From the NCBI GenBank assembly GCA_013378385.1, contig JACAFS010000020.1:1-16957 (forward strand): DNA of 16,957 nucleotides, in the 5' to 3' direction. Below, one piece after another: positions 2,538-16,717 of the stretch. Both the position numbers and the translations under genes were made by a program. Source of the DNA: Nitrososphaerota archaeon. GTDB lineage: Archaea; Thermoproteota; Nitrososphaeria; Nitrososphaerales; UBA57. The notes under the pieces were generated by a model. That model worked only from the letters and a program-made list of their open reading frames with translations. It searched no databases and was not told where the DNA came from. Position 1 is the first letter of the stretch, and each line of letters opens with the position of its first letter.

Positions 2538-2584
2538 AGGGGGCCTCCTTCCATAGCGATTCAGGATCGTCTGCGCAGCGCGAT
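2519..2584. repeat. 3' module copy 1 (C-run/G-run hairpin + shortened core + relic gene end)
   Basis: AACCCCCCCGTTTGATGTAGAGGGGGCCTCCTTCCATAGCGATTCAGGATCGTCTGCGCAGCGCGAT matches 4949-5013 apart from one C indel and two substitutions. C-run 2520-2526 and G-run 2539-2543 can pair around a 12-nt loop. The shortened core TTCCATAGCGATTCAG lies at 2549-2564. Confidence 0.9.
2561..2584 (-). pseudogene. relic 3' end of a lost minus-strand surface-protein gene (…IALRRRS-stop)
   Basis: The reverse complement of 2561-2584 is ATC GCG CTG CGC AGA CGA TCC TGA = I A L R R R S stop. This matches the last 7 codons plus stop of 4990..8079 (ATC GCG CTG CGT AGA CGA TCC TGA) at 23 of 24 nt. Homology stops abruptly at 2584, where the 5' module begins. 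Confidence 0.75.
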
Positions 2585-2647
2585 ATCATTGATTTGCTGC
2601 AATTTACACAAGTAAAGCAATATAACTGAATCATATCTGTACAGCAT
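2582..2647 (+). promoter_or_regulatory. 5' module copy 2 with TATA-like AATATAA (2619-2625)
   Basis: GATATCATTGATTTGCTGCAATTTACACAAGTAAAGCAATATAACTGAATCATATCTGTACAGCAT abuts ATG 2648 and is near-identical to 314-378. The TATA-like box is centred 26 nt before the ATG. Confidence 0.6.
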
Positions 2648-4948
2648 ATGCATCCATTGAAATTGTCTCTATTTGCGCTGTTGTTATTGGCAGTTTTTAG
2701 TATACAATCTGTAGAAGGTTCACCTCAAGCTACTATAGAAAGTATAGAACCCCAAATACTTAATCTGGATGATTTTGTTGAAGAAGTTGATTGGATAAAC
2801 AATTCATATATATATGAAAATCATAATAGTTTTACTCCATCAAATCATACTTGGACACATAACTACACCGAACCTGGTGAAAGCTGGAAGTTGCCAAATC
2901 CCGTTTGGAACCTGTCTCAAGGTCAAGCGCAGCAAGATGTTGATAGGAATCAGATTTGGGGTCCAGCTTTAAGTTGTGAAGGGGAAAATGGAACACACAA
3001 TTCAGAATTTTGTATGTATTATGAGGGGGGTTCTGGCTCATTGTTTACAGAAAATTATGATGTGTCAGATTTATCTTATAATATTTCGTTGTATCTAAGT
3101 CATAGATACAACTTCGATTATTACGCTGGTTATCCCTCATATAATGGAGGCCAAGTTAGAATCAGTACTGATAACGGCACCACCTGGTCTCTCCTTTACC
3201 CTGATGGAGGCTATCCTGGCACAATACATGATGATGAGTCACATGGCAATCCTTTGTATGGCCAAGAGGGCTTTGTCCATTGCGGAGACTGTTCAGGCGT
3301 AAGTGGTTCGGCAAGTGATAATCAAGATAAATGGATTACAACTATATTCGATTTAAAACCATATTTTAACACCGAATATGTTAAATTTCAGTTCATAGTT
3401 GGGATGTATGGTTATCAATGGCCAGGTGACGGAGAACATTGGTACATTGATGAATTTCATATAGCTGAAAGCCCTGAATATCTGTACTTCTTGGGTAATG
3501 CAAGTGACATCGATGGCAACATTACGGATTATCAGTGGAATTCAACCATAGATGGAAATTTTGGTAACACTGAAAACTTAACGTTTATTTTGAATAGTTT
3601 TCAACGATTATCTATTGGAAATCATACGATATCTTTTACAGCTCGAAATGAGGAAGGCAATTGGTCTGATGAGGATTATTCCTGGTTATTAATCTTAAGA
3701 AATCCAGGTATTGAATGGATTAATGTTCCTGACGATTTTTCAACTGACGTGTCTCCATTTATAGAATTCAGTATAACAACGCCAGTTAATTTCTCAACCA
3801 GGTGCAAATTAGATGAGGAAGAATGGTACGATTGTGACTCGACAAATAATTTTTCCAATCTTACTCAAAGAGAACATTCGTTTGCAGTTAATGCAACTGA
3901 TGAATTTGGATACTATAATCTAAGTTATTTCAATTGGACGGTAATTAATAATCCTCCAAATGTGGATTACTCAGTATCCGAAACGCCAATTCGACAATAC
4001 CATCCGTTATCCGTTAGCTGTTCTGCGTCTGATTCTGATGGTTATATTGTAAAGTACAGATGGGCTTTAGTTGATTCATCTGACAGGCAAAATACCAGTA
4101 AAGATTTTGTCCTTTACGAAGGTGAAAATCCTAATACTACTTTCTCGAATATAACTGTAGGTAATCATTGGATAACTTGTAGAGCTTTTGACAATGATGG
4201 TGATTGGAATTGGGTTCAGGCAATAACAAGCATTTATATTAAAAATAACACCAAGCCACAAGCTGACATAGAAGAGATAGTACCTGATTTAGCAGAATAC
4301 GGAAGGTCTGTAGAATTCTATGGTAATGCCTCAGATGACAATTTTACTATCGAAAAGTATGAATGGAGCTCTAATGTAGATGGAACCCTTTCGAACACTC
4401 GTAATTTCACAACATCATCTTTGGGTGCTGGCTGGCATACCATATATTTCAGAGTTCGTGATTCTGAGGGTCTTTGGAGTGATAATGCAAGTAAAGATTT
4501 GTTTGTCAATATTATACCCACGGCTTATGCTGGGGAAAATGTGTCTACTACTCCGAATGTTCCAATTCAATTTAATGGTCAAGGAGAAGATGAAGATGGC
4601 AACATTACCAAGTACGAATGGGATTTTGACGGTGATGGAATTTACGACTGGGCTGATGAATTCAATGGTAGAGAATTGAATTTGTATAATAATGCAGGAA
4701 CATATACTGCAGTTCTTAGAGTAACGGATAATGATGGTTCAACTAGTACGGATGAGGTTACTGTCAAAGTTACTGAAAAAGATGTAGTTATTGACCTAGG
4801 AGATGGTGAAATTGATGTTGATAATGGTACTATTGAAATGGAGAATGGTAGTTTTGATTTAATAGAGACTGAGGAAGGAATCCCTAGCATTGGAATTATT
4901 GCTGCAATGGTATCAATAGGATTGATTGCAAGGTTCAGAAGAAGATAG
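2648..4948 (+). CDS. secreted, heavily sequon-bearing surface protein with PKD/Ig-like repeats and IPS-helix-RRR C-terminal anchor
   Basis: 766-aa ORF with signal peptide MHPLKLSLFALLLLAVFSIQSVEG. There is a clear PKD domain near the C-terminus (NITKYEWDFDGDGIYDW...GTYTAVLRVTDNDGSTSTDEVTV). Upstream PKD-like repeats read NITDYQWNSTIDG, IVKYRWALVD and TIEKYEWSSNVDG. I counted 31 N-x-S/T sequons by hand. The C-terminus is EEGIPSIGIIAAMVSIGLIARFRRR-stop. Confidence 0.9.
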   Translation: MHPLKLSLFALLLLAVFSIQSVEGSPQATIESIEPQILNLDDFVEEVDWINNSYIYENHNSFTPSNHTWTHNYTEPGESWKLPNPVWNLSQGQAQQDVDRNQIWGPALSCEGENGTHNSEFCMYYEGGSGSLFTENYDVSDLSYNISLYLSHRYNFDYYAGYPSYNGGQVRISTDNGTTWSLLYPDGGYPGTIHDDESHGNPLYGQEGFVHCGDCSGVSGSASDNQDKWITTIFDLKPYFNTEYVKFQFIVGMYGYQWPGDGEHWYIDEFHIAESPEYLYFLGNASDIDGNITDYQWNSTIDGNFGNTENLTFILNSFQRLSIGNHTISFTARNEEGNWSDEDYSWLLILRNPGIEWINVPDDFSTDVSPFIEFSITTPVNFSTRCKLDEEEWYDCDSTNNFSNLTQREHSFAVNATDEFGYYNLSYFNWTVINNPPNVDYSVSETPIRQYHPLSVSCSASDSDGYIVKYRWALVDSSDRQNTSKDFVLYEGENPNTTFSNITVGNHWITCRAFDNDGDWNWVQAITSIYIKNNTKPQADIEEIVPDLAEYGRSVEFYGNASDDNFTIEKYEWSSNVDGTLSNTRNFTTSSLGAGWHTIYFRVRDSEGLWSDNASKDLFVNIIPTAYAGENVSTTPNVPIQFNGQGEDEDGNITKYEWDFDGDGIYDWADEFNGRELNLYNNAGTYTAVLRVTDNDGSTSTDEVTVKVTEKDVVIDLGDGEIDVDNGTIEMENGSFDLIETEEGIPSIGIIAAMVSIGLIARFRRR

Positions 4949-5013
4949 ACCCCCCGTTTGATGTAGAGGGGGCCTCCTTCCATAGTGATTCAGGATCGTC
5001 TACGCAGCGCGAT
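4949..5013. repeat. 3' module copy 2 (spacer between convergent genes plus last codons of 4990..8079)
   Basis: ACCCCCCGTTTGATGTAGAGGGGGCCTCCTTCCATAGTGATTCAGGATCGTCTACGCAGCGCGAT is the counterpart of 2519-2584. C-run 4950-4955 and G-run 4968-4972 can pair. The shortened core lies at 4978-4993, and its TCA (4990-4992) is the stop of the minus-strand gene. Confidence 0.9.
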
Positions 5014-8000
5014 GATTCCGATGGCAGCGATTGAAGAGATCAAAGATACTGAAGGTATGCCTTCTTCATCTTCTCCTGCATCTGTAACCGTAACATTGCC
5101 TTCATCGTCAATCTGAACCTTCTTCTCTGATATTGTGATTTCTACTGTATCAGTGTCTGTGAATCCATCATTATCTGTTACACGCAAGGTTGCAGTATAT
5201 GTTCCTTCATTATTGTAAATGTTCAACTCACGGCCATTTTCAGTAGATGACCATTCAAAGATACCATCTCCATCAAAGTCCCATTCATAGAGAATAACGG
5301 TTCCATCCTCATCTGTAGCCGCACCACTGAACTGTAACGGAACTCCAGGCGTGCCCGTTGAATCTTGACCAGCTATTGCAACAGGTGATACATATATCCA
5401 CAATTCTTGAGATACTGAAGAACTCCAAACCCCATCATTGTCCAACACCTGAAGGGCGATAATATGATAGCCAATTGATAAATCACTTGCACTAAAATTT
5501 CTTTGCTCACTTAAATTCCCATCAATCGTTGATTTCCATAAGTAGGATACAATGGTAAGATTATCATCAGTTCCAGTGCTGTTGAAGAATACAGTGATTC
5601 CTGCCTCTGCTGGTGAAGGGGAAATGGAATCTATTATTCCAACAGGTTGGGAATTAGGAGTTACGATTAGAACCGCAGTAACCCATTCTGACCATCTCTT
5701 TGGAAAAATGGTATCATTGTCCAGCACTCGGAAAGAGATAGAGTGGTTTCCGGCAGTCAGACCTGTATGATAGAAATCTTCTTTATCACTCAAAAATCCA
5801 TCTATGTCTGAGATCCATTCATACGCGGAGATTGTTCCGTTGTTATCAGTTCCACTTCCATTAAAAGAAATTATCCTGTCAAACCTAACTAATGACGGTG
5901 TAATAGAGTCGATTACTGCGACTGGAGGTATATTGGGATTAAAAACCTGCACCGTTGCTACACCTATTTCTCTCCCATTTTCTTTGTCATCATCGACACG
6001 AAAACTTATGAAATAGCTACCTTCTTCTGTTGGTACCCATTGTGTATCAGTCTCATTGGAGATAACTCCAGATTCTACATACCAAGTGTAAGTTGTAATA
6101 TTTCCACAACCTCTGACCGCGCTGCCGTTTAGCCAAACAGTCTCACCAATTGCAACATAAAGTGGTTCTGCGCTTGCAGATATGGTAGGTGGCACATCCG
6201 AAACTACTTTGATGTTGATGGATAGCTTTGAACTCCAAGTTCCATTATTGTCTTGAACCTCCAGTTTAATCTGATAGAAGGCGCCTGCATCGAAAGAAGT
6301 TGTCCAATTGACCTCTTCGGATACAAGTTCATTGTTAAACCACCAGCGATAAGCAACTATCGTTCCGTCTGGATCCGAAGAATTTCTGGCTGAAAAAGTA
6401 AGATTCCAACAATCGCAATATTCTGGTGTAAGACCGCCTAGTGAATCTGGTGAGATTGTTATTGCTGCCGTTGGGCCTATGTTGGAAACAACTTCAATAT
6501 ATTTGTCATTATCATATTGGTTGTTCGTGTCGTCCCATTCAAGGATTTCTTCATCCCTGTCAACCCAAGCATAAAACTCATAGACACCTAATTTAGTTGG
6601 AGTCCAGGCGTACTCGAAGATAGTAGTATCTGGCGTGAGCCCAACCGTCTTGGAATCATCAATCTTGAACCAGCTGGTCACCGTATCTTCCGGATCTTTA
6701 ATCCTGATAAAAACGTCAACGTCATCAGCTATTCGGTCTCCTAAATCAGTCTGAGACACTGCGACCTGAATCGTTCTTGTTTCATCTACAAAGACTTCGC
6801 CTGTCCCCTCATCAATATCAGTTACAATCAAATCCGGCCTTGTTTCTTTCAATTCGAAATATTCAGCGTAGACAGTATACCAATCCAGATTGTTATTATC
6901 TTCGTCCGTTTCTTCGATTACATCCTCTCCATCGACAACAATTCGAACATTCCAAAACCCAGCATCATCAGAGGTTGTACTCCAGTTGACAGCTAGAATA
7001 TCATCCGATGTGAAAACCTCGCCACCTTCTATAGTAGTTCTAACGGACTTACTTTGATTGGTATAGGTCCATGATTGTCCTGAACAGTCTCCATCTGGGC
7101 ATTTCATGACCTCGAGATGCATGACTAACCAACCATCTCCGGGCTCGGGTGGTTCTGCATCTCCTTCACCTGTGTTCTCAATCGAATATTTGAAAGATAC
7201 TGTATCACCACCTACAGGATCGAGAGGTTCGCAGCTTATCGAATCGATACCATTATCCCAAACCCGAAGATCAGGGTCACTACAATCTCCCACACAAACT
7301 TCCCACACATCTACATTATTATCTAAATCGGGATCTTCTTCGGTGTTGTTCTCATCCGAATCAATGATAACTGTGAATTTGTACTCTCCATCTTCAGTGT
7401 CACTAGGAATTGTATATGACCATTCCATAGTCTCTGGTTCTGGTGGTGCATCAGGAGAAGGCGGGCTTATGTAGGCAAAAGTGTATGGCGTTGGATCAAA
7501 ATAATTGGTTGGTTCTTCATCTACCTCATCAAAATAGGCCATTATAGTTACAGGATTCAGAGTACTGACGTCTCCTTCATTTCCATACTCGAAAACTACC
7601 TCGACGCTTTGGCCTGCAGAAAACTCATCACCATCTATATCAAAATCAACGAAAAGATCAGCATCACCGGTTTCAGGTTCAACATTGATATAATTCTCAA
7701 ATATACCATAATCACTACTGGAATAATAAATAGTCGCAGAGTAGCAAACTTCTCCAGTCTCATCAAAAGTAATCTCCAGAGTTACAGTATCTGATTCGCC
7801 GGCCCCCATTGTAATTGTATCAGACTCGTCTGCTAAATCATCCTGATCACAATCAGAAAAAAGGCGTACGGTTGCATCGTAAGAATCATCACCATTATTT
7901 GACCATTCTGCTATAATTTCATATTCAACATTTGCCCTTGGAGGCGGTGTACCAGCTGGCCCATATAGATTGACAACCTCCAAATCGTCTTCTGGTCCGG

Positions 8001-8079
8001 CCTGAACAGATGTAGATGCCATGGTAGTCAATACCATCATAAAAATGATAAAAGCCGAGAGAAATCGCCAACCTTTCAT
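4990..8079 (-). CDS. large secreted surface protein: N-terminal CARDB-like repeats, C-terminal PKD repeats, IPS-helix-RRRS anchor
   Basis: 1029-aa ORF with signal peptide MKGWRFLSAFIIFMMVLTTMASTSVQA. Repeated CARDB-like units begin with DLEVVNL..., DLFVDFDI..., PDLRVWDNG... and PDLIVTDIDEG.... PKD units include VILYEWDFDGDGIFEW...GTYTATLRVTDNDGFTDTDTVEI. The C-terminus is EEGIPSVSLISSIAAIGIIALRRRS-stop. TATA-like CTTATTAC (complement of 8100-8107) lies 21-28 nt upstream of the ATG. Confidence 0.92.
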   Translation of the reverse strand: MKGWRFLSAFIIFMMVLTTMASTSVQAGPEDDLEVVNLYGPAGTPPPRANVEYEIIAEWSNNGDDSYDATVRLFSDCDQDDLADESDTITMGAGESDTVTLEITFDETGEVCYSATIYYSSSDYGIFENYINVEPETGDADLFVDFDIDGDEFSAGQSVEVVFEYGNEGDVSTLNPVTIMAYFDEVDEEPTNYFDPTPYTFAYISPPSPDAPPEPETMEWSYTIPSDTEDGEYKFTVIIDSDENNTEEDPDLDNNVDVWEVCVGDCSDPDLRVWDNGIDSISCEPLDPVGGDTVSFKYSIENTGEGDAEPPEPGDGWLVMHLEVMKCPDGDCSGQSWTYTNQSKSVRTTIEGGEVFTSDDILAVNWSTTSDDAGFWNVRIVVDGEDVIEETDEDNNNLDWYTVYAEYFELKETRPDLIVTDIDEGTGEVFVDETRTIQVAVSQTDLGDRIADDVDVFIRIKDPEDTVTSWFKIDDSKTVGLTPDTTIFEYAWTPTKLGVYEFYAWVDRDEEILEWDDTNNQYDNDKYIEVVSNIGPTAAITISPDSLGGLTPEYCDCWNLTFSARNSSDPDGTIVAYRWWFNNELVSEEVNWTTSFDAGAFYQIKLEVQDNNGTWSSKLSINIKVVSDVPPTISASAEPLYVAIGETVWLNGSAVRGCGNITTYTWYVESGVISNETDTQWVPTEEGSYFISFRVDDDKENGREIGVATVQVFNPNIPPVAVIDSITPSLVRFDRIISFNGSGTDNNGTISAYEWISDIDGFLSDKEDFYHTGLTAGNHSISFRVLDNDTIFPKRWSEWVTAVLIVTPNSQPVGIIDSISPSPAEAGITVFFNSTGTDDNLTIVSYLWKSTIDGNLSEQRNFSASDLSIGYHIIALQVLDNDGVWSSSVSQELWIYVSPVAIAGQDSTGTPGVPLQFSGAATDEDGTVILYEWDFDGDGIFEWSSTENGRELNIYNNEGTYTATLRVTDNDGFTDTDTVEITISEKKVQIDDEGNVTVTDAGEDEEGIPSVSLISSIAAIGIIALRRRS

Positions 8080-8124
8080 AATGTTCTAAATAATGGAAAG
8101 TAATAAGGATTTGCGAAATACTTC

Positions 8125-8149
8125 ACTCCACAATAACATAGTGATTCGG
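8125..8149. repeat. core repeat, full copy 1
   Basis: ACTCCACAATAACATAGTGATTCGG is 22/25 identical to 8896-8920 and 23/25 to 10438-10462, in the same orientation. It lies 45 nt upstream of the minus-strand start at 8079. Confidence 0.9.
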
Positions 8150-8171
8150 CATTGAAAATAGATAAGTAACA

Positions 8172-8891
8172 ATGTATGTTCCGCTTCATATGAGCAAAAC
8201 CTACTTGGTAATATTTTGTTTGCTTGCTACGTCCCTGGCCGGATGCTTATCTGGGGATACAGGTACAGACGTTATTCCGTACGAACCTGGGAGTGCAACA
8301 CTAATACAATCGGAATGGACAATGACAGAACATAACGTATATTTTCAACAATTTACAGCACCGAGTACTGGTGAGTACACTGGTATGACTATCATTACCG
8401 TGTCCACTTATGGATATTCTAGTTGTTCAGAGTATAGTGGAGTTCTTGGAGTTGCCGTATATTCACATAATGCCACCGATTCTAGAGCTGGTGCGCCTAG
8501 TGAATTAATTGCGCAGGGAACTTTATCATTAGATAATGTTAGTGCAAAGAACGGATACTTAAGCCATGCAATACAATTTGATGATTCTGCAGATTTGAAA
8601 TCTAATACAATATATTGGGTTGCTATTGCATCCGAATCTCCGATTGACTCGTGTCGTTTAGAGTTAGGTTATTACGGAGGTTATTATATTGTTGAAACTG
8701 ATAGGTATGGCAGTACCTCTAAGGTTGATTTTATTCCACCGAGTAACGATTATGGATTAGTGAAGTATATGAACTCAAACAGTTATGATGGCAATGTTAC
8801 GGGTTTTTCAGCCAGTGGAGGGTTTCCCACAAGTCTTGGTGAATATAGTTTATCTAGTGGAGAATATGCTTATTGGTATCGTATATTCTGA
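8172..8891 (+). CDS. putative lipoprotein, unknown function
   Basis: 239-aa ORF. The N-terminus ...MSKTYLVIFCLLATSLAGC carries a lipobox-like LAGC. There is no C-terminal anchor. An in-frame ATG at 8190 is an alternative start: the A/T box AAAATAGATAA (8155-8165) would then sit 25-35 nt upstream, as at other genes here. Confidence 0.8.
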   Translation: MYVPLHMSKTYLVIFCLLATSLAGCLSGDTGTDVIPYEPGSATLIQSEWTMTEHNVYFQQFTAPSTGEYTGMTIITVSTYGYSSCSEYSGVLGVAVYSHNATDSRAGAPSELIAQGTLSLDNVSAKNGYLSHAIQFDDSADLKSNTIYWVAIASESPIDSCRLELGYYGGYYIVETDRYGSTSKVDFIPPSNDYGLVKYMNSNSYDGNVTGFSASGGFPTSLGEYSLSSGEYAYWYRIF

Positions 8892-8895
8892 GACT

Positions 8896-8920
8896 ATTCC
8901 ACAACAACATAGTGATTCAG
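8896..8920. repeat. core repeat, full copy 2
   Basis: ATTCCACAACAACATAGTGATTCAG starts 4 nt after the lipoprotein stop codon. Its TCA (8917-8919) is the stop codon of the minus-strand gene 8917..10395. Confidence 0.9.
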
Positions 8921-10395
8921 TATCGTCTACGCAGCGCTATCAACCCAATCGATATCAAGGCAGGAATAAGGGATATTGAAGGAATCCATCCTGAATCATT
9001 TATGTCTCCAGGTTCGCAGTCCATTTCTGTACAAGACCATTCACCTTCGCTACAGACACATTGATTGCAACCATCATCTGCCATTTTAATATATCCATTC
9101 TGGCAAAGGTCAGATTCATCTTCTGTATTCGAGGCTCCCTCTTCTAGCTTTGGAGATTCCTCTCCTATATTTTCATCATCTAGCATATTCTCAAACAGGT
9201 AGACTGTATCTTGGGTGGTAACAATAACATACTTACCATTCGTAGACATTTCTATATGTTCAATGGATATTCCTATGTTGTACTCCCAAAGCAGGGTCTT
9301 ATTCTCTGTTGCAAGTGTGAAAACATATCCATCCTTGAAGCTCGCGATGTACTTACCGTCATTTGAAATGACAGCCTGAGAGACTTCCTCTTCTGCGTCA
9401 TATACCCAAATTGGACTATTGCTGTCTCTATGAAAAAGATAGATTTTACCATCACTTGCACTTGCGGTAATGTATTGCCCGTCACTTGACATGGCGATTG
9501 AATTGAAAAATGTCCCACCATCTGTCGGAGTATATTCCCAAACAGTTGCATTGCTTTCCTTATTAAATAAATAAATCTTAGAAGAGCCACAATCACCATT
9601 GCAATCATGTCCTTCCCCCTTCGCTATAGCGATAAACGTCCCGTCTTCCGAGATAGAAACGTGCATTTCAGGTCCCTGAAATGTAATGCTATTTCGTATA
9701 GGCATGAACCTGTATTCCCACAAAGGCGTACTATTTTCTTTGGAAAAGAAGGTAATTTTCCCTTCAGCAGATTCGTTTGCATGCTGTATAGCATAGCCGG
9801 CAACGACGAAGTACCCTCCGTCCGCCGAGATAGCGAATGATCCACCTCGATTTATATCTAGAGTATAGTTACTGATTAGCGTACCGTTACCACTTCTCAA
9901 CAAATGTAGGCCACTCACTAATATATGTTCTCCGTCAGCAGTAATGTCATGCACTCGCGACGATCCTGAAACATTCCATTCCATTTGCCAAAGTGGTGTA
10001 CCGTTTTCACTTCTAAAAACTGAAAAGTAAGGTGGACAGTGTGCGTGGTCATTTGGATCCATCTCACATTGAGCTCTTGCATGATGGACGATTACGTAAT
10101 CTCCATTCTCAGATATGAGAGAGTTCTTCGCAGTATCTCCTTCCGTATAGTTCCAAAGAAGCGTATTATTTCTAAACAAATAAACTACTCCATCACTATT
10201 CCTTCCAGAGTCCCTTCCTGCAGAGACAATCACATATTCGCCATCTCCAGAAATGGTAGCTGAAAGCTGCTCCGGACTAGATGGAATTTCAGGAGTAAAG
10301 GTCCATACGGGCTCTTTCCCCGCATCCACTTCCCCCGCCATCAGCACCAGCGCGAAGCCGGCAAGTAGCAAAAAAAGAAGGGAACGCATTGTCAT
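8917..10395 (-). CDS. secreted beta-propeller-repeat protein with Cys-rich module and IPS-helix-RRRY anchor
   Basis: The ORF track extends to 10452, but a signal peptide begins at MTMRSLLFLLLAGFALVLMAGEVDA (ATG 10395; a second ATG at 10389). About seven repeats end in a W-x-Y/W motif (LLWNYTEG, PLWQMEW, PLWEYRF, TVWEYTP, PIWVYDA, LLWEYNI), typical of PQQ/WD-like propeller blades. The C-terminus is CQNGYIKMADDGCNQCVCSEGEWSCTEMDC...SGWIPSISLIPALISIGLIALRRRY-stop. TATA-like CTTATTAC (complement of 10411-10418) matches the spacing at 8079 best if 10389 is the start. Confidence 0.88.
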   Translation of the reverse strand: MTMRSLLFLLLAGFALVLMAGEVDAGKEPVWTFTPEIPSSPEQLSATISGDGEYVIVSAGRDSGRNSDGVVYLFRNNTLLWNYTEGDTAKNSLISENGDYVIVHHARAQCEMDPNDHAHCPPYFSVFRSENGTPLWQMEWNVSGSSRVHDITADGEHILVSGLHLLRSGNGTLISNYTLDINRGGSFAISADGGYFVVAGYAIQHANESAEGKITFFSKENSTPLWEYRFMPIRNSITFQGPEMHVSISEDGTFIAIAKGEGHDCNGDCGSSKIYLFNKESNATVWEYTPTDGGTFFNSIAMSSDGQYITASASDGKIYLFHRDSNSPIWVYDAEEEVSQAVISNDGKYIASFKDGYVFTLATENKTLLWEYNIGISIEHIEMSTNGKYVIVTTQDTVYLFENMLDDENIGEESPKLEEGASNTEDESDLCQNGYIKMADDGCNQCVCSEGEWSCTEMDCEPGDINDSGWIPSISLIPALISIGLIALRRRY

Positions 10396-10435
10396 ACTCA
10401 AATGTAGTTTGTAATAAGTGTTTTTCTTTGTGAAA

Positions 10436-10654
10436 TCATTCCACAATAACATAGTGATTCAGTACTATTATTTGGCAATCCGGGCAGGTAACATCCTCCA
10501 ACTCTTCCGTTACATTGAAACCCCATATTCCACAAAGTGTCCGATTAGTATCCTCATCATTGCAATGAACATGGAAAAGATCATCATGCATCGCGCAGGG
10601 ATGGAAAATCCGCAAGTAATCATTACCTTCCCAGTAACAGTCAGGACATTTCAT
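10436..10654 (-). CDS. small zinc-ribbon protein (CPDC...CPDC); may be the C-terminal part of a longer or degraded gene
   Basis: From ATG 10654: MKCPDCYWEGNDYLRIFHPCAMHDDLFHVHCNDEDTNRTLCGIWGFNVTEELEDVTCPDCQIIVLNHYVIVE. It has two CPDC pairs plus extra Cys/His. The same frame stays open upstream to 10915 with no ATG (the track uses TTG at 10834), so the true 5' end is uncertain. Confidence 0.5.
   Translation of the reverse strand: MKCPDCYWEGNDYLRIFHPCAMHDDLFHVHCNDEDTNRTLCGIWGFNVTEELEDVTCPDCQIIVLNHYVIVE
10438..10462. repeat. core repeat, full copy 3
   Basis: ATTCCACAATAACATAGTGATTCAG lies 42 nt upstream of the start at 10395 and overlaps the last codons of the zinc-ribbon ORF. Confidence 0.9.
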
Positions 10655-11106
10655 TGGTAGACCCCGAAAATATCGAGCCTGTCGGCTATTGGGTTTTTGG
10701 CGAGTGTAGTTTGTTTGTGGTAATTCATTTGTTGGCGTTTCCTGCGTCAGGAAGGCGCGGCGGAGCGTTGGCTGACGGTTATACTTCAGACAGTAGAATT
10801 CGACATAGCGTTGGCTCTGCAGTTGCGTTCCCAAAACATCTCGCTGATAGCCGAGGCTCTCAGCGATATCGAAGACGTGACGTGGAAGGTAATAAAGGTG
10901 GCGGCGAGCAAGATTTCAACGACCGTTAGAATCATTCGGGAAAAAATCGAAAATGTTAGTTTTCCGTAGGGTAAAGTACATTTTCGCACATCAATTTGGG
11001 GCTATTTTGCCAGTAAAAGACCTATTTAGGGTGAAAAACAGCGATTTCGCCCCAAATATTTGGCTGAACAGGAGTGTTGAGGGATGCCCAAAGGCACTGA
11101 GACGTG

Positions 11107-11135
11107 CTAGCATACCAATGGATTAGTGATGCTAG
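11107..11135. other. hairpin, 7-bp stem (CTAGCAT/ATGCTAG), 15-nt loop
   Basis: Read directly from the sequence, in an ORF-poor stretch. Confidence 0.5.
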
Positions 11136-11147
11136 GTATCCTTACCT

Positions 11148-11165
11148 CCTATGTGTACACATAGG
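11148..11165. repeat. 18-bp perfect palindrome CCTATGTGTACACATAGG
   Basis: The sequence is self-complementary across all 18 nt and is non-coding. It may be a protein-binding site. Confidence 0.8.
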
Positions 11166-11170
11166 CTTTC

Positions 11171-11190
11171 CATGAAACTACATGAAATTA
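11171..11190. repeat. tandem 10-mers CATGAAACTA/CATGAAATTA
   Basis: Two adjacent 10-nt units, 9/10 identical, start 6 nt after the palindrome. Confidence 0.6.
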
Positions 11191-11453
11191 ACAAAGAATT
11201 TAACAAATTATTACTAACAACACATTACAGAAGTACTACGCCAATCATCAACCAATAATCGCCACGGCGTCCTAAATTTCAGTTTGACGTAATCAGGCCT
11301 TTTCAAAAAGACCGTCACGACGATAGCCATTTTGAGAATCAGCTTTGAAAAAGGGTGAGCGGGCTCATTTCATATTTTTCTTCAATTCGAGTCATTTTTT
11401 GGAAATACCGTACGGTAAAATAGTTTGAAATGGCTTAGATTTTCATCCCCAAA

Positions 11454-11462
11454 TTTTATATA
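11454..11462 (+). promoter_or_regulatory. TATA-like box TTTTATATA for the HNH gene
   Basis: It lies 26-34 nt upstream of ATG 11488, the same geometry as other genes in the window. Confidence 0.5.
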
Positions 11463-11487
11463 CCTTCAAGAAAAAAGACTTGGTTAT

Positions 11488-11808
11488 ATGCGTAAAAATC
11501 ATAAAAAAGATATAGATAGTACGAAAGACTTCATCAGAAAGGCAGCTAAGTTCATCAATAAGGTGGATCGAAAATTTCGCAAATGGACCCGTTTCAAGAA
11601 TGAGTACCGGCCAGCCAATAAGCGCTATATTCCAAAGCCGACACGAAAGGCGGTCTTAATTCGAGATAACTATAGTTGTGTCAAGTGCGGTAACCAGAAG
11701 GATTTGCACATGGACCATATTATCCCGGATTCCAAGAATGGCAGTAACGAGCTGGAGAATTTGCAGGTCCTTTGCAAAGATTGTAATTTGAGGAAAGGTG
11801 TGAGTTAG
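11488..11808 (+). CDS. HNH endonuclease
   Basis: The track ORF starts at TTG 11425; I prefer ATG 11488 (MRKNHKKD...) because of the TATA spacing. The C-terminal half, CVKCGNQKDLHMDHIIPDSKNGSNELENLQVLCKDCNLRKGVS, is a canonical HNH motif. It is a paralog of 1-264. Confidence 0.9.
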   Translation: MRKNHKKDIDSTKDFIRKAAKFINKVDRKFRKWTRFKNEYRPANKRYIPKPTRKAVLIRDNYSCVKCGNQKDLHMDHIIPDSKNGSNELENLQVLCKDCNLRKGVS

Positions 11809-11847: not shown

Positions 11848-12708
11848 ATGGTTGAAAAATTGGATTCTTTCTATGTAATCCCAGGTTACACATTTTTCTA
11901 TTGGGGATTCACACTTCCTAAGAAGCATTATGAGGAATTCATAGATTTTTTTAATTTCAATGATGATAAATTATTAGACAAAATAACTTTAAAAATTGAT
12001 GGTAAGAAATATCCTGCTAAAATCCGAATGGCTCGGATTAATAATAAAGGAACAATGAAAGGACGTTCAAATGTGAAATATCCTGAAAGAGAAGTAATTC
12101 AAATTTTCTGGGATAAGGAATATGAAACATTGAAAGCTCTTCGTAAATTTTTCATTTACAGTTACGCATCAACAATAGACAAATCTAAGCCTAAATTGAA
12201 GGAAGTGATGGAATTAATTCATGTCAAAAATAATGAATTTAGAATAAAATCAATATCTAGGCAAGAAACCGATTTTGATGCCATGTTAAAATTTATGGAG
12301 GATAAGAATTTGTTTGGATTTTGGAGAGAAGAAATCTCTAAGAAAAAGAGAAAGCGTAATATTTTTGTCGATTATTCAAGGAAATGGATTCCAGCTTCTA
12401 AAGTTAAAGATTATAGTAATCGAAATCATATAATTTATCTACTATATCACTCGGAAAAGAAACAATTGTATGTTGGAAAAGCGAACATAATGGGCGATAG
12501 AGTTCAGCAAGGTAAAGGCCGTATTGGGCTTGACAAAGATTGGGATAAATTCATGTTCTTTGAGATTCATCCTGAGTTTAGCCATTTCATAGAACAGATT
12601 GAAGCTTTTACGATTCGCTCATTTGCAGCATTAGTGGATAATGATGTTGATATTACACCACTTGTTGATAGAAATATTAAGTTGGTAAACCGGCAGTTGA
12701 AGAAGTAA
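11848..12708 (+). CDS. two-domain protein: unknown N-terminal domain + C-terminal GIY-YIG-like nuclease domain
   Basis: 286-aa ORF. NHIIYLLYHSEKKQLYVGKANIMGDRVQQG fits the GIY-x(~10)-YVG-x-A-N-x3-R pattern of GIY-YIG nucleases. A downstream Glu-containing helix (FIEQIEAFTIRSF) sits where the catalytic Glu is expected. The N-terminal ~170 aa are unassigned. Confidence 0.6.
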   Translation: MVEKLDSFYVIPGYTFFYWGFTLPKKHYEEFIDFFNFNDDKLLDKITLKIDGKKYPAKIRMARINNKGTMKGRSNVKYPEREVIQIFWDKEYETLKALRKFFIYSYASTIDKSKPKLKEVMELIHVKNNEFRIKSISRQETDFDAMLKFMEDKNLFGFWREEISKKKRKRNIFVDYSRKWIPASKVKDYSNRNHIIYLLYHSEKKQLYVGKANIMGDRVQQGKGRIGLDKDWDKFMFFEIHPEFSHFIEQIEAFTIRSFAALVDNDVDITPLVDRNIKLVNRQLKK

Positions 12709-12711
12709 GGA

Positions 12712-12741
12712 TGGATGCTTTGTATGAGACGGTAGCATCCA
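12712..12741. terminator. hairpin between convergent genes (8-bp stem TGGATGCT/AGCATCCA, 14-nt loop)
   Basis: It lies in the 64-nt spacer between stops at 12708 (+) and 12773 (-). A terminator role is inferred only from its position. Confidence 0.3.
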
Positions 12742-12772
12742 GACCGCTTTGAGTCGGTGAGACTTCTTGGTT

Positions 12773-14413
12773 TTAGTTTATTGCTTTCAAATTGTGTCGA
12801 GCCATCTCCCTGTAAATTTTATCCTTTATTGTTTTCTCAGGAGTTTTAACATGTATGGAGATGTAAGTGGATAGTTCATCAATCATATGATTTTGATGCA
12901 GGCCAACTAATTTCTTGTTTCCTAATTTTGCAGCTTCTTTGTAGTAAGCATGACTTGCATTTGATACAATGTGTAATACTTGAAGTCTAGGATACAGAAT
13001 TGAATACTGTTCATATTTCCCTAATTCTTGAACATCATGTTCAATTTTGATTGATTTTGCTGACTTAGGTAGCCGGAAAGCCTCTTTACTTTTCCTTTTA
13101 CGATCATTTGTAGTTATGCCTTTGACAACTTTCTTTTTCAAATCAATAGGAACCGATTTACGAATAAGCTTGTCAACTTCTCCCGAATCCATATGATCGT
13201 CTTCAGAAGACTCTTCCATTACTTCTGAAGACATTTTCAAATTTTCGAGTTCATTAAACTCTAAACATGACACAGTTTTTGACAAATAATCTTCAATTTT
13301 TCTCGTTTCTCTTTCCACACTCTTAGGGGGCTTATATTTGCCATTAGAAAGAATTCTTCTAGCAAATTCGACTACAGGATCAAATAATTTCATCAAGTAG
13401 TTATTCAAATGATTATATTCCAAACTTTTACGATCTAATTTGGTTTTTTGATAGTTTACTGAGAAGTTTTGCTCAACATTCACTTGCCCGTATAATCTTG
13501 CCCTGTTTGCTCCCACTCCAATTCTACTATTCGATTCTACCAATCGACCGTTTAAGAAAATATCAATTCCATCATGCTTTTGATTGTGTTCTTTTTGAAT
13601 TCCAATATACCCTGAGATCTTGAAATGATTATTCTTTCCAGCAACTATTTTGGTATCAAAATCCTCAAATATTTTTACTTTTTTAGCCTTAATATTGTAT
13701 CTTTTCTTTACTTCGGGCTGATCAACAATTTCAAAAATCTCAGGTTCTTTCCAATAAAGTTGCTTTCCTTCAAAGAAAATATCAAGATTTTTACTGCACA
13801 TCTTGTAATATGTCCTTGATAAGTTATCAAAAATCTGTTCAAAATCGGGTTCTTTTATATGGCAATCTGTTATCAGAATCTTGGTAAAATGATCTTTTTT
13901 AGAAAGTCCACTTTTTTGTTGCAAATCTAATTCCCAATCACCTTTTTTCTTCACTGCATCACAATCGAATGGAATAGTTGTTGCATAATCTTTACCTTCA
14001 CTTTTTGTTCTAATAAAAATATGATTTCCTAGTTCCAGTGTAGAATTCTTCAACCCTATACCAAATCGTCCAATGCTCTTCTTCTTTTTTGATGCGCCCG
14101 CAATCCAACACGTTTCAGGATTCAATATTCCTGATCCTTCATCAGAAATTAACCATCCTTCTTCACCTTTATATCTTGCGAATTCATGTGTTTTCTTTAT
14201 CTTTGATGGAATCGAATGCCATTTAACAGAAATAGCATTTTTTTGGTACAATATTTTGTACGTATCTTCGGTGTATCCAGCATCTATAGAATTATCTATC
14301 AAATCTGATAGACTTTGTTCTATTTCTCTGCCACCGCTTCTCCAACTTTCAATTATGTTGGTGTCTGGCGTTATGTTTATTTTTTTCTTTGTTACTTTTC
14401 CCAATTTAATCAC
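12773..14413 (-). CDS. GHKL-superfamily ATPase, MORC-like (HATPase_c_3 type)
   Basis: 546-aa ORF with a GTG start. Bergerat-fold motifs appear in order: N-box SLSDLIDNSIDAG, G1 box LISDEGSGI, G2 box SIGRFGIGLKNS. The S-x-GRFGIGLK form is characteristic of the MORC/HATPase_c_3 branch. The C-terminal ~350 aa are unassigned. Confidence 0.8.
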   Translation of the reverse strand: MIKLGKVTKKKINITPDTNIIESWRSGGREIEQSLSDLIDNSIDAGYTEDTYKILYQKNAISVKWHSIPSKIKKTHEFARYKGEEGWLISDEGSGILNPETCWIAGASKKKKSIGRFGIGLKNSTLELGNHIFIRTKSEGKDYATTIPFDCDAVKKKGDWELDLQQKSGLSKKDHFTKILITDCHIKEPDFEQIFDNLSRTYYKMCSKNLDIFFEGKQLYWKEPEIFEIVDQPEVKKRYNIKAKKVKIFEDFDTKIVAGKNNHFKISGYIGIQKEHNQKHDGIDIFLNGRLVESNSRIGVGANRARLYGQVNVEQNFSVNYQKTKLDRKSLEYNHLNNYLMKLFDPVVEFARRILSNGKYKPPKSVERETRKIEDYLSKTVSCLEFNELENLKMSSEVMEESSEDDHMDSGEVDKLIRKSVPIDLKKKVVKGITTNDRKRKSKEAFRLPKSAKSIKIEHDVQELGKYEQYSILYPRLQVLHIVSNASHAYYKEAAKLGNKKLVGLHQNHMIDELSTYISIHVKTPEKTIKDKIYREMARHNLKAIN

Positions 14414-14429
14414 CTTTTGGTTTGGTTCA

Positions 14430-14741
14430 TTAGAATCCTACTCCTCTCATGATAATCTCTCCTCTCTTGATCTTGTATGAGAATTTGTGATGATTGTTTG
14501 ACCCTCTTGCTTTCGTAGCATTAGAAATCATCTTAGCTTTTAGATGCGCTCCTTTGATTAACGTGTTATTAGAAATTTCTTCCCCTTCAAACGTTGTTCT
14601 TTTTTGAGGAGTTACAACCCCTATTGGGACTCTTACCAGAGAGCCGCGTTTGATTTCTTTGACCGATATCGGAAATTTAGTTGATAAGACAATTGAGTCA
14701 AAGCTCAATTTTGAGTTGAAAGGCAATTGACCGCAGATCAA
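14430..14741 (-). CDS. hypothetical 103-aa protein, middle gene of the GHKL operon
   Basis: The TTG start overlaps the upstream stop (TTGA at 14738-14741), and the ORF ends 16 nt before the GHKL start. I recognise no motif. Confidence 0.55.
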   Translation of the reverse strand: MICGQLPFNSKLSFDSIVLSTKFPISVKEIKRGSLVRVPIGVVTPQKRTTFEGEEISNNTLIKGAHLKAKMISNATKARGSNNHHKFSYKIKRGEIIMRGVGF

Positions 14742-15697
14742 TTTTCCTCCCTGACCATTGCATTAAAGACATCAGATTCTGCGTTAGGATTTTTGTTGTA
14801 AACTCTTTTAATCCTTCTGACTCCTGGTTTAGGATATCTTTTAGCTTTTGATTTTAACGTAATAAGTCCATCAAGGAATTCCAGTTCTTGCTTAATATCT
14901 AGTACAATTATTTTGTCAACTGCATCTTTGATTTCATCGATTTTGCTAAAATCATAATCCCTAATTGAAATATAAAACTCATCGGTTTCTTCAGAACTAC
15001 TTTTGGAAGGTTTTACTTGCGATTCCCAAAGTCTATCTTCTACTTCGATTATCCTCTCAATTATGTTGTTCTTTGATTGATGCTTCTCAAATTTTTCAGC
15101 AACAGTTGGCTTTTTCTTGGGGATATAGGATCGCTCAGTCTGAACAAATCGTACCAGGTTCTCTCCTCTTTCTCCCACGGCCTTTTCTTGGGTCCACTTC
15201 TTTCCAGTTATTTTACCAAGTCTTCTCATGAATGAAGAACTGATGACAGTGGTACTGCTGTCAGTGTCATTAATCTTAATCAAACCATCAGGATTGTCTG
15301 GCGTAGACCCAAACATTTTCTTTAGCCTAGTAACTTTTACGTATTTTCCCTCAATGGAACTAAAGTATTCTTCTAATTCTCCATCCGTGATTTTCTGATT
15401 TTTTCGTACGGGGCGTGGCTTTCCGCCTTCATAAGTGGCTTCTTCCAGGTGGTGAACTCTCCAAAGTTCATCTAGTCGGGATAGATATTTTTCCGATTCT
15501 TCGTATCCAGCATGGCAGTCCATACAGTACCAGTTTCCGCTTTCTTCATCCAGATCTACACGGTGCACGTCTTCTTCATGTTCAAAAGGACACGTGTAGA
15601 ACGGGTCATTAGGGGCTTGGTGTTTTGGTACGCCAAGTGCTTTTCTGATTCTGTCACGAGCTTGTAGTAGTATTCCAGCCAGTTCGGGTTTTCGCAT
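14738..15697 (-). CDS. hypothetical protein with N-terminal CHC2-type (primase-like) zinc finger
   Basis: 319-aa ORF. CPFEHEEDVHRVDLDEESGNWYCMDCHAG resembles the DnaG/P4-primase zf-CHC2 pattern CPFH-x-E...(~17)...C-x-x-C-x-x-G with one extra residue. I see no Toprim or primase catalytic motif in the remainder. TATA-like TTTTAATA lies 22-29 nt upstream. Confidence 0.7.
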   Translation of the reverse strand: MRKPELAGILLQARDRIRKALGVPKHQAPNDPFYTCPFEHEEDVHRVDLDEESGNWYCMDCHAGYEESEKYLSRLDELWRVHHLEEATYEGGKPRPVRKNQKITDGELEEYFSSIEGKYVKVTRLKKMFGSTPDNPDGLIKINDTDSSTTVISSSFMRRLGKITGKKWTQEKAVGERGENLVRFVQTERSYIPKKKPTVAEKFEKHQSKNNIIERIIEVEDRLWESQVKPSKSSSEETDEFYISIRDYDFSKIDEIKDAVDKIIVLDIKQELEFLDGLITLKSKAKRYPKPGVRRIKRVYNKNPNAESDVFNAMVREEN

Positions 15698-15718
15698 AAT
15701 CTGAGAGCCTGTTGAGGG

Positions 15719-15726
15719 TATTAAAA
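15719..15726 (-). promoter_or_regulatory. TATA-like box (TTTTAATA on minus strand) of the GHKL operon
   Basis: It lies 22-29 nt upstream of ATG 15697. Confidence 0.5.
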
Positions 15727-15736
15727 CGTTTCTTTT

Positions 15737-15776
15737 CGCACTTTAGTGCACCTCATTGCACCTTAATGCACCTTAA
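15737..15776 (-). promoter_or_regulatory. four tandem 10-bp repeats (minus sense TTAAGGTGCA TTAAGGTGCA ATGAGGTGCA CTAAAGTGCG)
   Basis: The plus strand reads CGCACTTTAG TGCACCTCAT TGCACCTTAA TGCACCTTAA. The period is exactly 10 nt, and the array lies immediately upstream of the TATA-like box. Confidence 0.7.
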
Positions 15777-15854
15777 CGGTATTTTTTCAGTTTATGCCCT
15801 TTTTTAACGCATCTTGAGGTAGGCCGAGATAGAGCTCCGCTAGCCCCGAATCCA

Positions 15855-16331
15855 CTAGATATTTTTCATTTTGAGATACGTTTTAATCTCAGTTTTTACA
15901 GTTTCTAAATCCAATTTTTCAGTTGAAACCCAGGTTCGATCCTCAAATCTGTAATAAAATTTCTTTTTTTGACCCTGGTCTGTTGCTATGAAAAGTACCG
16001 GTTTTTTATTCTGTTGTTCATCCAGCTTATCTTTTTCAGTTTGGTCATATTTTTCCTCACTTATAGACCTTCCACTTCTAAAATAATATCTTTTATTTTT
16101 AGGAGAATCATGTATCTTTTCCAATATTTGTCTTACACTCAGTTGTAATATGATCTCAGTAAATGCCCAAATAAAAAAGAGAGTAATTATCCAATTCCAC
16201 CAATTTAATTCATCATAGTAATAATACAAAAGCAATGGTATGGAGACTAAAATGGCTGATATCTTTATGAAAAGTTCAGCATTACTTCTTTCGGAAATAA
16301 GCATTCCATTTTTTCTGTCGGGTTCTATCAC
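15855..16331 (-). CDS. small membrane protein (two TM helices), unknown function
   Basis: 158-aa ORF with a GTG start at 16331; ATG 16304 is an alternative. The hydrophobic segments are FIKISAILVSIPLLLYYYY and WWNWIITLFFIWAFTEIILQL, followed by a Lys/Glu-rich soluble tail. Confidence 0.6.
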   Translation of the reverse strand: MIEPDRKNGMLISERSNAELFIKISAILVSIPLLLYYYYDELNWWNWIITLFFIWAFTEIILQLSVRQILEKIHDSPKNKRYYFRSGRSISEEKYDQTEKDKLDEQQNKKPVLFIATDQGQKKKFYYRFEDRTWVSTEKLDLETVKTEIKTYLKMKNI

Positions 16332-16438
16332 AGAAAGCCCATACCCTCTCCAGATTTATGCCTATTTGTCAAAACTCAGGCTTCCCACCTCCGTGAACCT
16401 CCTTGGTATGGAATCCTGTCAGACGCGTATTATGTATA

Positions 16439-16717
16439 TCACTTACTACTTCCGAAGTCGAGCCATTTGAACATTGTTATGCGGTTATCTTCCCCCATAT
16501 TTTGCCAGAATTCCTCATCCGCAGAGACTTCTCTTGCTCCATCCCTAATCCAGTCTAGCATGGTTTTGTGGCTACAGATCCCGGGTCCAATATCATCTAC
16601 CCAGCATATGTCAATAGGTAATCCAGTAGAAGAATAGCCTTCAATATCATATATTACTCTCCAGAAAGAGTCTTTGAGCCAGCAAGTTCCAATCTTCAAA
16701 TCCTCTCGTTTTACCAT
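16439..16717 (-). CDS. hypothetical 92-aa protein
   Basis: ATG-initiated ORF, divergent from the RHH gene. I recognise no motif. Confidence 0.5.
   Translation of the reverse strand: MVKREDLKIGTCWLKDSFWRVIYDIEGYSSTGLPIDICWVDDIGPGICSHKTMLDWIRDGAREVSADEEFWQNMGEDNRITMFKWLDFGSSK

Follow-up and report, generated by a model that had tools for sequence, protein, structure and literature searches.

In marine archaea, the coexistence of strains and their escape from viruses have been attributed to islands of hypervariable surface-protein genes. The closest described systems are the cell-wall island GI1 of Haloquadratum walsbyi, a flexible genomic island for cell-surface proteins (PMC4535781), and the VARTIG hypervariable Ig-domain modules of Thermococcales, for which the sites of recombination could not be located (PMC8416519). 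Here we analysed a 16,957-nt stretch from an uncultured marine archaeon (Nitrososphaerota, contig JACAFS010000020.1), hereafter the window; coordinates of repeat copies refer to this whole stretch unless a related contig (L002 to L051) is named. A sequence of about 25 nt, which we call the core, recurs in the window at joints between surface-protein genes. It serves as a joint for recombination within a modular archaeal island of surface and defence genes. It is the end of a conserved zinc-ribbon (Zn) open reading frame (ORF), it forms arrays in which all copies share one orientation, and related strains differ at its edges. We consider it probable that this hypervariable island is shuffled by short-homology or microhomology recombination that is filtered by selection.

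The locus resembles GI1 (PMC4535781) in being an archaeal island at one genomic position in which surface-glycoprotein and envelope genes vary between co-occurring strains, and both are diversified by recombination and mobile DNA and break metagenome assemblies. Unlike GI1, for which no joint sequence has been described, the units here are single genes with modular promoters and anchors and with a recurring 25-nt gene-end fragment. With VARTIG (PMC8416519) the locus shares archaeal Ig/PKD-type secreted proteins that carry sorting signals and are shuffled between strains, with no integrase found. It differs from VARTIG in lineage and protein families and in that its breakpoints can be read at nucleotide resolution. 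Joints that are readable to the nucleotide in an uncultured lineage (the gene-end fragment, shared promoters, and shared anchor tails) give a concrete, testable picture of modular gene exchange, and the core provides a sequence tag for finding such islands in metagenomes.

The core is the end of a zinc-ribbon ORF

The 13-nt right half of the core (CATAGTGATTCAG, allowing up to 2 mismatches) matched the window five times, always on the + strand (2552, 4981, 8137, 8908, and 10450), while shuffled windows gave a mean of 0.70 matches and none of 200 shuffles reached five. These counts bear out the five co-oriented copies described in the initial annotation of this DNA. Its finer observations were also reproduced: the minus-strand ORFs that end at 4990 and 8917 take their stop codons from the TCA within GATTCAG, the ATGs at 8079 and 10395 are 45 and 42 nt away from the core, and a TATA-like GTAATAAG is present at 8100-8107 and 10411-10418. 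The three long copies make up repeat family D3, with 22-24 of 25 positions matching between copies. Both short copies are inside a 64-nt duplicated module, D2 (2521-2584 and 4950-5013, 97% identical), in which a hairpin and the short core precede the initial 20 nt from the end of an anchor-coding gene. Chance or an assembly artefact was ruled out as the origin of the core, as the arrangement recurs across independent samples and assemblies.

The copy at 10438-10462 (+ strand, ATTCCACAATAACATAGTGATTCAG; copy 1) is joined to an intact Zn-ribbon ORF of 72 amino acids (aa) with two CPDC motifs (10436-10654, - strand), which was recognised from translations, protein clusters, and alignment. The core is the last 8 codons and the stop codon of this conserved ORF (10436-10462). 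Continuing along the minus strand, the stop codon is followed by a TATA box and a beta-propeller gene. This copy is coding, since the Zn ORF reads through it and ends in CPDCQIIVLNHYVIVE and the stop codon. The automatic gene call of the source contig had missed the Zn ORF and extended the beta-propeller ORF to 10452. About 33 of the 50 core instances, found on 40 related archaeal contigs, extend rightward into the Zn ORF, and the minus-strand reading ends in W-G-F-N-V-T-E-E-L-E-D-V-T-C-P-D-C-Q-I-(I/A)-V-(L/M)-N-H-Y-V-(I/V)-V-E-stop. To the left of the core, conservation ends at the Zn stop codon, and the conserved part measures about 25-27 nt. The detached copies are 3' fragments of this ORF.

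The Zn ORF itself evolves as a real protein, with 641 synonymous and 460 non-synonymous differences. Its family comprises 18 homologous clusters, none of which has a Pfam domain and whose members are all on contigs shorter than 2 kb. The Zn protein had no match in Pfam, NCBIfam, or PADLOC, and its AlphaFold2 model had a mean predicted local distance difference test score (pLDDT) of 43, too low to use. A longer Zn protein was considered and rejected, because the in-frame upstream region has no codon periodicity and contains 1-nt indels. Zn genes of distant lineages, which were found by protein similarity and not with the core pattern, carry the core with synonymous variants such as CTGAACCACTATGTCCTTGTGGAGTGA; CTGAACCACTATGTCCTTGTGGAG is another variant. 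Synonymous variability was 0.19 in the core and 0.16 in the rest of the Zn ORF (11 ORFs, 8 of which had been found with the core as search pattern). Because the core is not less variable at synonymous sites than the remainder of the ORF in this largely core-ascertained set, we rejected an extra constraint on the core at the DNA level.

Among the detached copies, copy 2 (8896-8920, +) overlaps the beta-propeller stop codon (8917-8919) and the tail coding for the RRRY-stop anchor. No promoter follows it because a convergent gene lies on its left. Copy 3 (8125-8149, +), a GATTCGG variant, has the promoter of a PKD gene on its left and the promoter P1 of a 239-aa gene on its right. The 64-nt module at 4950-5013 (+) contains a G/C hairpin, a short core with 8 nt missing (4978-4993), and the coding end of the PKD/CARDB anchor (stop codon 4990-4992). 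In its second copy (2521-2584, +), the short core (2549-2564) is followed by a 20-nt relic of an anchor end (2565-2584) that is fused to promoter P2. Also fused to P2 is an internal relic of the Zn ORF that lacks the core (297-330, +; the part coding for ITCPD), which compares with Zn relics in L016, L021, and L035. The G/C hairpin (CCCCCC-N12-GGGGG, at 2521-2545 and 4950-4974) lies between convergent genes and resembles a bidirectional terminator; its copy at 2521-2545 contains the stop codon of the 228-aa ORF.

The island is built of compact units, mostly of one gene and each with its own promoter, and cores stand at the joints between units. The initial annotation saw one sequence that closes one gene at its 3' edge and opens the next gene at its 5' edge. 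Compactness of the genome accounts for this more simply: the B recognition element (BRE) and TATA box of a gene come immediately after the stop codon of the gene before it, and the same promoters occur without a core right after anchor stop codons (L009, L023, L002, and L045). Where consecutive anchored genes have no core between them, the stop codon is directly followed by ACAAAGAAAAACACTTATTAC, a BRE plus TATA box.

These promoters bear on the idea that the core is a cis-regulatory element, an operator or activator site upstream of the minus-strand promoter that comes next, with the Zn-ribbon protein perhaps binding to it. Two start codons do lie 42-45 nt downstream of the core, with the GTAATAAG TATA boxes about 17-20 nt downstream of it, most left flanks have a TATA-like element 15-25 nt from the core, and an imperfect 6-3-6 palindrome (CACAAT-AAC-ATAGTG) is found within the core. 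We nevertheless regard a regulatory role as improbable. Besides the promoters that occur without a core, there are cores without a downstream promoter (8896 in the window, 2039 in L002, and the short copies), the homology stops short of the promoter, at the Zn stop codon, and the core varies synonymously in distant lineages. Its recurrence would on this account reflect co-regulated surface genes that need the core, to which we give equally little credence.

Gene content changes at the core edges

The window makes up nearly all of its 17,044-bp source contig, so context was sought in related contigs. Exact-pattern scans returned one GTDB representative genome contig (L002, from a metagenome-assembled genome of an uncultured archaeon, with two co-oriented core copies) and 39 metagenome contigs, one of which was a chance match. 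The core was absent from the scanned viral contigs. The related contigs were therefore ascertained with the core as the search pattern. Clustering of the flanks gave 29 left classes and 13 right classes with reticulate pairing: at least 20 different left flanks are combined with the Zn right flank, each of five left flanks occurs with two or three different right flanks, and three units recur with differing neighbours. Cores were co-oriented in all 11 contigs with more than one copy (the window and 10 others).

The clearest case of gain or loss at a core came from a three-way alignment with L020. Homology between the window and L020 stops at 10462 and restarts at 10440, and the single core of the window is represented in L020 by two identical cores with 2.0 kb inserted between them; the window corresponds to one L020 junction to the left of its core and to the other L020 junction to the right. 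This two-gene insert encodes a Zc3h12a/NYN RNase and also has a 440-aa ORF that belongs to no recognisable family. The beta-propeller orthologue in L020 (83% identity) has a core on its far side, as it does in the window, while its neighbours differ on both sides. Similarly, a 3.7-kb gene lies between two identical cores in L027 at a place where L016 has one core. The cores that flank the L020 and L027 inserts are identical at polymorphic positions as well. In L012, L029, and L031, the same left flank and core are followed by three different cassettes before the Zn ORF. The left neighbour of the 239-aa unit in L002 and L046 differs from that in the window; between L002 and copy 3 of the window, the core and P1 are the same and the left neighbour is another. 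In this comparison of related contigs, which had been proposed as a test of the joint, gene content and neighbours thus change exactly at core edges. Presence or absence of genes differs between strains at cores, and unrelated genes are found between copies.

Comparison with known recombination sites and mobile elements

An attC site spans 55-140 nt and forms a single-stranded hairpin from its imperfect inverted repeat (R''-L''...L'-R'), and a Xer/dif site is 28 nt long with two inverted arms around a 6-nt spacer. The initial annotation had likened the core to both. Its notion of cassette-like joint behaviour is sustained by the strain differences at cores, but the attC or Xer/dif logic is not, as the defining features fail. 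Four core copies, evaluated on both strands, showed no attC-type single-strand fold (z-scores of -0.85 to +1.12 relative to shuffles). The attC boxes GTTRRRY and RYYYAAC are absent from both strands of the core, the nearest sequence being GTTATTG, which fails at the RRR positions. Inverted arms of the dif type (two of about 11 nt with a 6-nt spacer) were likewise not found in the core, whose best symmetry is the 6-3-6 arrangement with one mismatch (CACAAT/AAC/ATAGTG), and the orientation of cores does not alternate as in pdif modules, either in the window or in the 10 other multi-copy contigs. The core also lacks features of miniature inverted-repeat transposable elements, having neither terminal inverted repeats nor target-site duplications; alleles with and without the core (CTTTG-27 nt-TTCAG versus CTTTG directly followed by TTCAG) show no duplication. 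In agreement with the initial annotation, which had recognised no recombinase inside the array, no intI or other recombinase domain was found among the ORFs of the window or the tested ORFs of about 45 related contigs, most of which are short.

Three classes of mobile or variable DNA share features with the locus. Integrons, including the archaeal ones (PMC9668308), have co-oriented sites, short units beside a fixed platform, a site at each joint, and presence or absence of cassettes. Unlike integrons, the locus has no IntI, its site is a conserved coding sequence of 25 nt as opposed to a structured attC of 55-140 nt, and its units have their own promoters and genes in both orientations. Tandem integrative elements, which arise through duplication of att sites by a tyrosine integrase, resemble the locus in having an intact target gene at the end and co-oriented 3'-end repeats that separate inserts. 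Accordingly, we found direct repeats (22-24 of 25 positions) of the 3' end of a Zn ORF that is intact at one end of the array, as well as occupied and empty alleles at the repeat (L020 versus the window and, similarly, L027 versus L016). The locus differs from tandem integrative elements in that its inserts are single genes of 0.8-3.7 kb and include no integrase (they hold one surface-protein gene, or else the NYN-RNase gene and the 440-aa ORF), and in that the relics vary in length. Finally, as in flexible genomic islands, the same locus carries different surface and defence genes in related strains and shows reticulate recombination.

These comparisons frame a second explanation, in which a dedicated site-specific cassette system uses the end of the Zn ORF as its attI or attB and the detached cores as cassette sites. 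We hold it to be unlikely, and so too that its recombinase would be encoded elsewhere or be of a new type that moves single-gene circles. In its favour, the inserts in L020 and L027 stand between direct repeats of the core that are identical down to polymorphic positions, an intact target gene stands at one end of the array, every copy is co-oriented, and the same unit is found in different arrays; moreover, at least six unrelated flanks have a sharp right boundary at GATTCA(G/T). Against such a system, no integrase, transposase, or other recombinase was found in the 17-kb window and about 45 contigs, and the core has neither inverted-repeat arms nor a folded structure and drifts at synonymous sites. 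Many junctions lie elsewhere in the Zn ORF or at other shared modules, and degenerate copies are not maintained. Should a dedicated enzyme act on the core, Archaea would possess a cassette system of a new kind. Slightly more doubtful still, in our view, is the specific form of an archaeal cassette platform, unrelated to integrons, at the last 25 nt of the Zn ORF, by which single promoter-bearing genes would be captured, excised, and reshuffled; candidates for the activity of such a platform are the divergent HNH nuclease, the Zn-ribbon protein, and the conserved leader of about 220 nt.

Short homologies shared among modules

We favour recombination at short homologies or microhomologies, for which the following steps can be proposed. 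The Zn ORF, which is small and lineage-specific, would lie at the fixed edge of a hypervariable island of surface and defence genes, and 3' fragments of it would end up beside promoter-bearing units. Recombination between cores, or between other shared modules, could then insert, delete, or swap units, with TTCAGTAT, CGATACTGAA, and ATGAA as the probable microhomologies, and breaks made by the neighbouring HNH nuclease may help the exchange. The joints would be sharp at the edges of ORFs because only products with intact ORFs survive and because a stop codon abuts the next promoter. The enzymology is perhaps that of general homologous recombination or of homology-facilitated illegitimate recombination, with HNH nuclease breaks as a stimulus.

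Homology-facilitated illegitimate recombination and the 'minimal mobile elements' of Neisseria were described in naturally transformable bacteria. In such elements, as proposed here, a conserved anchor lets foreign DNA be added or exchanged beside it, and joints form at microhomologies.

The island is rich in sequences that could be used in this way. Identical promoter modules stand before unrelated genes, with P2 serving the 491-aa and 766-aa genes and P1 the 239-aa and heparinase-like genes, and their distance from TATA box to ATG points to leaderless transcripts. Further shared modules are a promoter with its leader in related contigs (P3), the GTAATAAG-type promoter, the signal peptide, and the anchor-coding tail. 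Junctions coincide with microhomologies: the Zn tail, the anchor tail, and P1 have TTCAGTAT in common, anchor tails and one Zn allele share CGATACTGAA, and ATGAA is found where the P3 start codon is fused to the core to yield a mini-ORF (M-NHYVIVE and a stop codon).

The junctions themselves are not confined to the core. The Zn relics beside detached cores have lengths of 0, about 10, 15 (L002), and 42-57 nt (L016, L003/L039, L021, and L046), and junctions also occur at other positions of the Zn ORF, at shared promoters, and at anchor tails. The chimeric Zn proteins P0014 and P0017 (L045 and others) combine the N-terminal half of the Zn protein with a surface-protein anchor or a foreign N-terminus with the C-terminal half of the Zn protein. 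Between L002 and L046, which are otherwise near-identical, a promoter segment has been replaced that is bounded by the core and the start of an ORF. For orthologous ORFs in different contexts (378 and 1861 in the window versus 2064-3550 in L046), homology sets in precisely at the start codon, with unrelated promoters upstream, and the boundaries of modules and ORFs fall together. This suggests that selection for intact ORFs sharpens the apparent boundaries. Degenerate cores (CCCGAAGAACATAGTGGTTCAG, CCCGAATAAGATAGATTCAG, and the version in L051) look, from their sequences, like decaying relics and not like maintained sites.

Several observations weigh against this preferred explanation. After GATTCA(G/T), at least six unrelated right flanks set in at one and the same nucleotide, a shared boundary that is tighter than random illegitimate joining predicts. 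Some inserts, such as that in L020, have no Zn or anchor homology beyond the two flanking cores, as would be the case for site-specific insertion. A length of 25 bp is short for efficient homologous recombination. Because the contigs were found with the core pattern, junctions without a core are under-sampled, and most related contigs are too short to rule out a recombinase gene nearby.

The HNH neighbour and the Zn ORF leader

Divergent from the Zn ORF is an HNH endonuclease gene (11488-11808, +; Pfam), of which a paralogous fragment is found at 1-264. The Zn ORF has an HNH gene as its divergent neighbour in four independent contexts, namely the window, L035, L019, and L042 from a distant lineage, which to some extent speaks for a dedicated mechanism. 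The paralogous fragment is separated by 35 nt from the Zn relic (297-330). These placements could be explained if the HNH nuclease cut at or near the core in the manner of a homing endonuclease and repair of the break from other alleles co-converted adjacent units. A fixed cut followed by variable resection would fit a hotspot with relics of variable length. We think such nuclease-driven exchange improbable as the explanation, since the cleavage is inferred only, other genes occupy the HNH position in L012 and L026, and HNH genes are common in defence islands anyway.

The stretch between these divergent genes includes a non-coding leader of the Zn ORF (10655-10900, -), whose conservation starts at a TATA-like GTAATAAA (10889-10896, given on the + strand). 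About 220 nt of leader are more conserved than the Zn ORF among the window, L006, L012, L015, L019, L026, L037, L042, and L044. The conservation begins sharply at the TATA-like TTTATTAC, and the leader has no codon periodicity and contains 1-nt indels. It could be a long 5' untranslated region or a separate RNA. RNAalifold predicted invariant pairs in the leader with essentially no covariation, and the leader did not match any Rfam family; across the window, neither a tRNA nor an Rfam family was detected. A weak match to a eukaryotic small Cajal body-specific RNA within 10400-11500 (E = 0.057) was taken as chance. A guide-RNA role was also considered and rejected, as neither the conserved leader nor the intergenic region shows complementarity of 8 nt or longer to the core.

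Genes and minor features of the island

The first copy of promoter P2 (314-376, +) and the second (2582-2644, +) constitute repeat D4 (95% identity). P2 has a TATA-like AATATAAC about 26 nt before the ATG, a spacing that suggests leaderless transcripts. The first copy drives both a choice-of-anchor T family protein of 491 aa (379-1854, +) and the ORF that overlaps it, which encodes a membrane protein of 228 aa (1851-2537, +). The second drives a PKD surface protein of 766 aa (2648-4948, +; Pfam). The next gene, on the opposite strand (4990-8079, -; Pfam), encodes a 1029-aa PKD/CARDB surface protein that has an anchor of the form TM-RRRS, in which TM denotes a transmembrane helix. P1 (CATTGAAAATAGATAAGTAACAATGTATGTTCCGCTTCAT; 8150-8199, +) drives the 239-aa gene (8172-8891, +) and, in L002 and L046, a heparinase II/III-like gene. 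The 239-aa product is a putative lipoprotein whose likely start is the ATG at 8200 (MSKTYLVIFCLLATSLAGC), and its gene lies between two cores. The beta-propeller surface protein (8917-10389, -; Pfam) has a signal peptide and a TM-RRRY anchor, with cores on both sides of its gene. From its orthologues and the TATA spacing, it likely starts at the second ATG (10389, MRSL). Many proteins of the island end in this way, with a TM helix and then RRR(S/Y), and the stop codon of the anchor lies within CTGAA.

The gene content at related loci is of a similar kind and includes PKD, CARDB, beta-propeller, heparinase-like, HNH, NYN, type I restriction-modification, and VWA genes. Beyond the HNH gene, the region at 11848-16717 of the window encodes a GIY-YIG-like protein (286 aa), a GHKL/HATPase_c_3 protein (546 aa), and four ORFs without a family match (103, 319, 158, and 92 aa). 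It resembles a defence island, and no PADLOC system was matched there.

Related contigs provided three further observations. In L027 (1154-1210, in core orientation) and L011 (990-1045), genes for large secreted proteins end in GWNIL and an in-frame TAA, which is followed by an intact anchor sequence (LISSIAAIGIIALRRR and a stop codon). The TAA is either a recent disruption or a site of read-through that gives secreted and anchored forms. Mini-ORFs made only of end modules were found in L002 (40-102), L046 (7254-7316), L011 (74-100), and L030. They are of two kinds, a fusion of signal peptide and anchor (MTMRSLAFLLIAVIALRRRY and a stop codon) and the fusion of a promoter's start codon to the core mentioned above, and by their composition they look like units emptied by deletions between modules. 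In the distant L042 (563-570), the Zn stop codon is 6-7 nt from the end of a convergent gene for DNA-3-methyladenine glycosylase (Tag), with no unit between them, and in L024 a Tag gene is found between two cores. The arrangement of Zn and Tag genes in L042 may be the empty state of the island.

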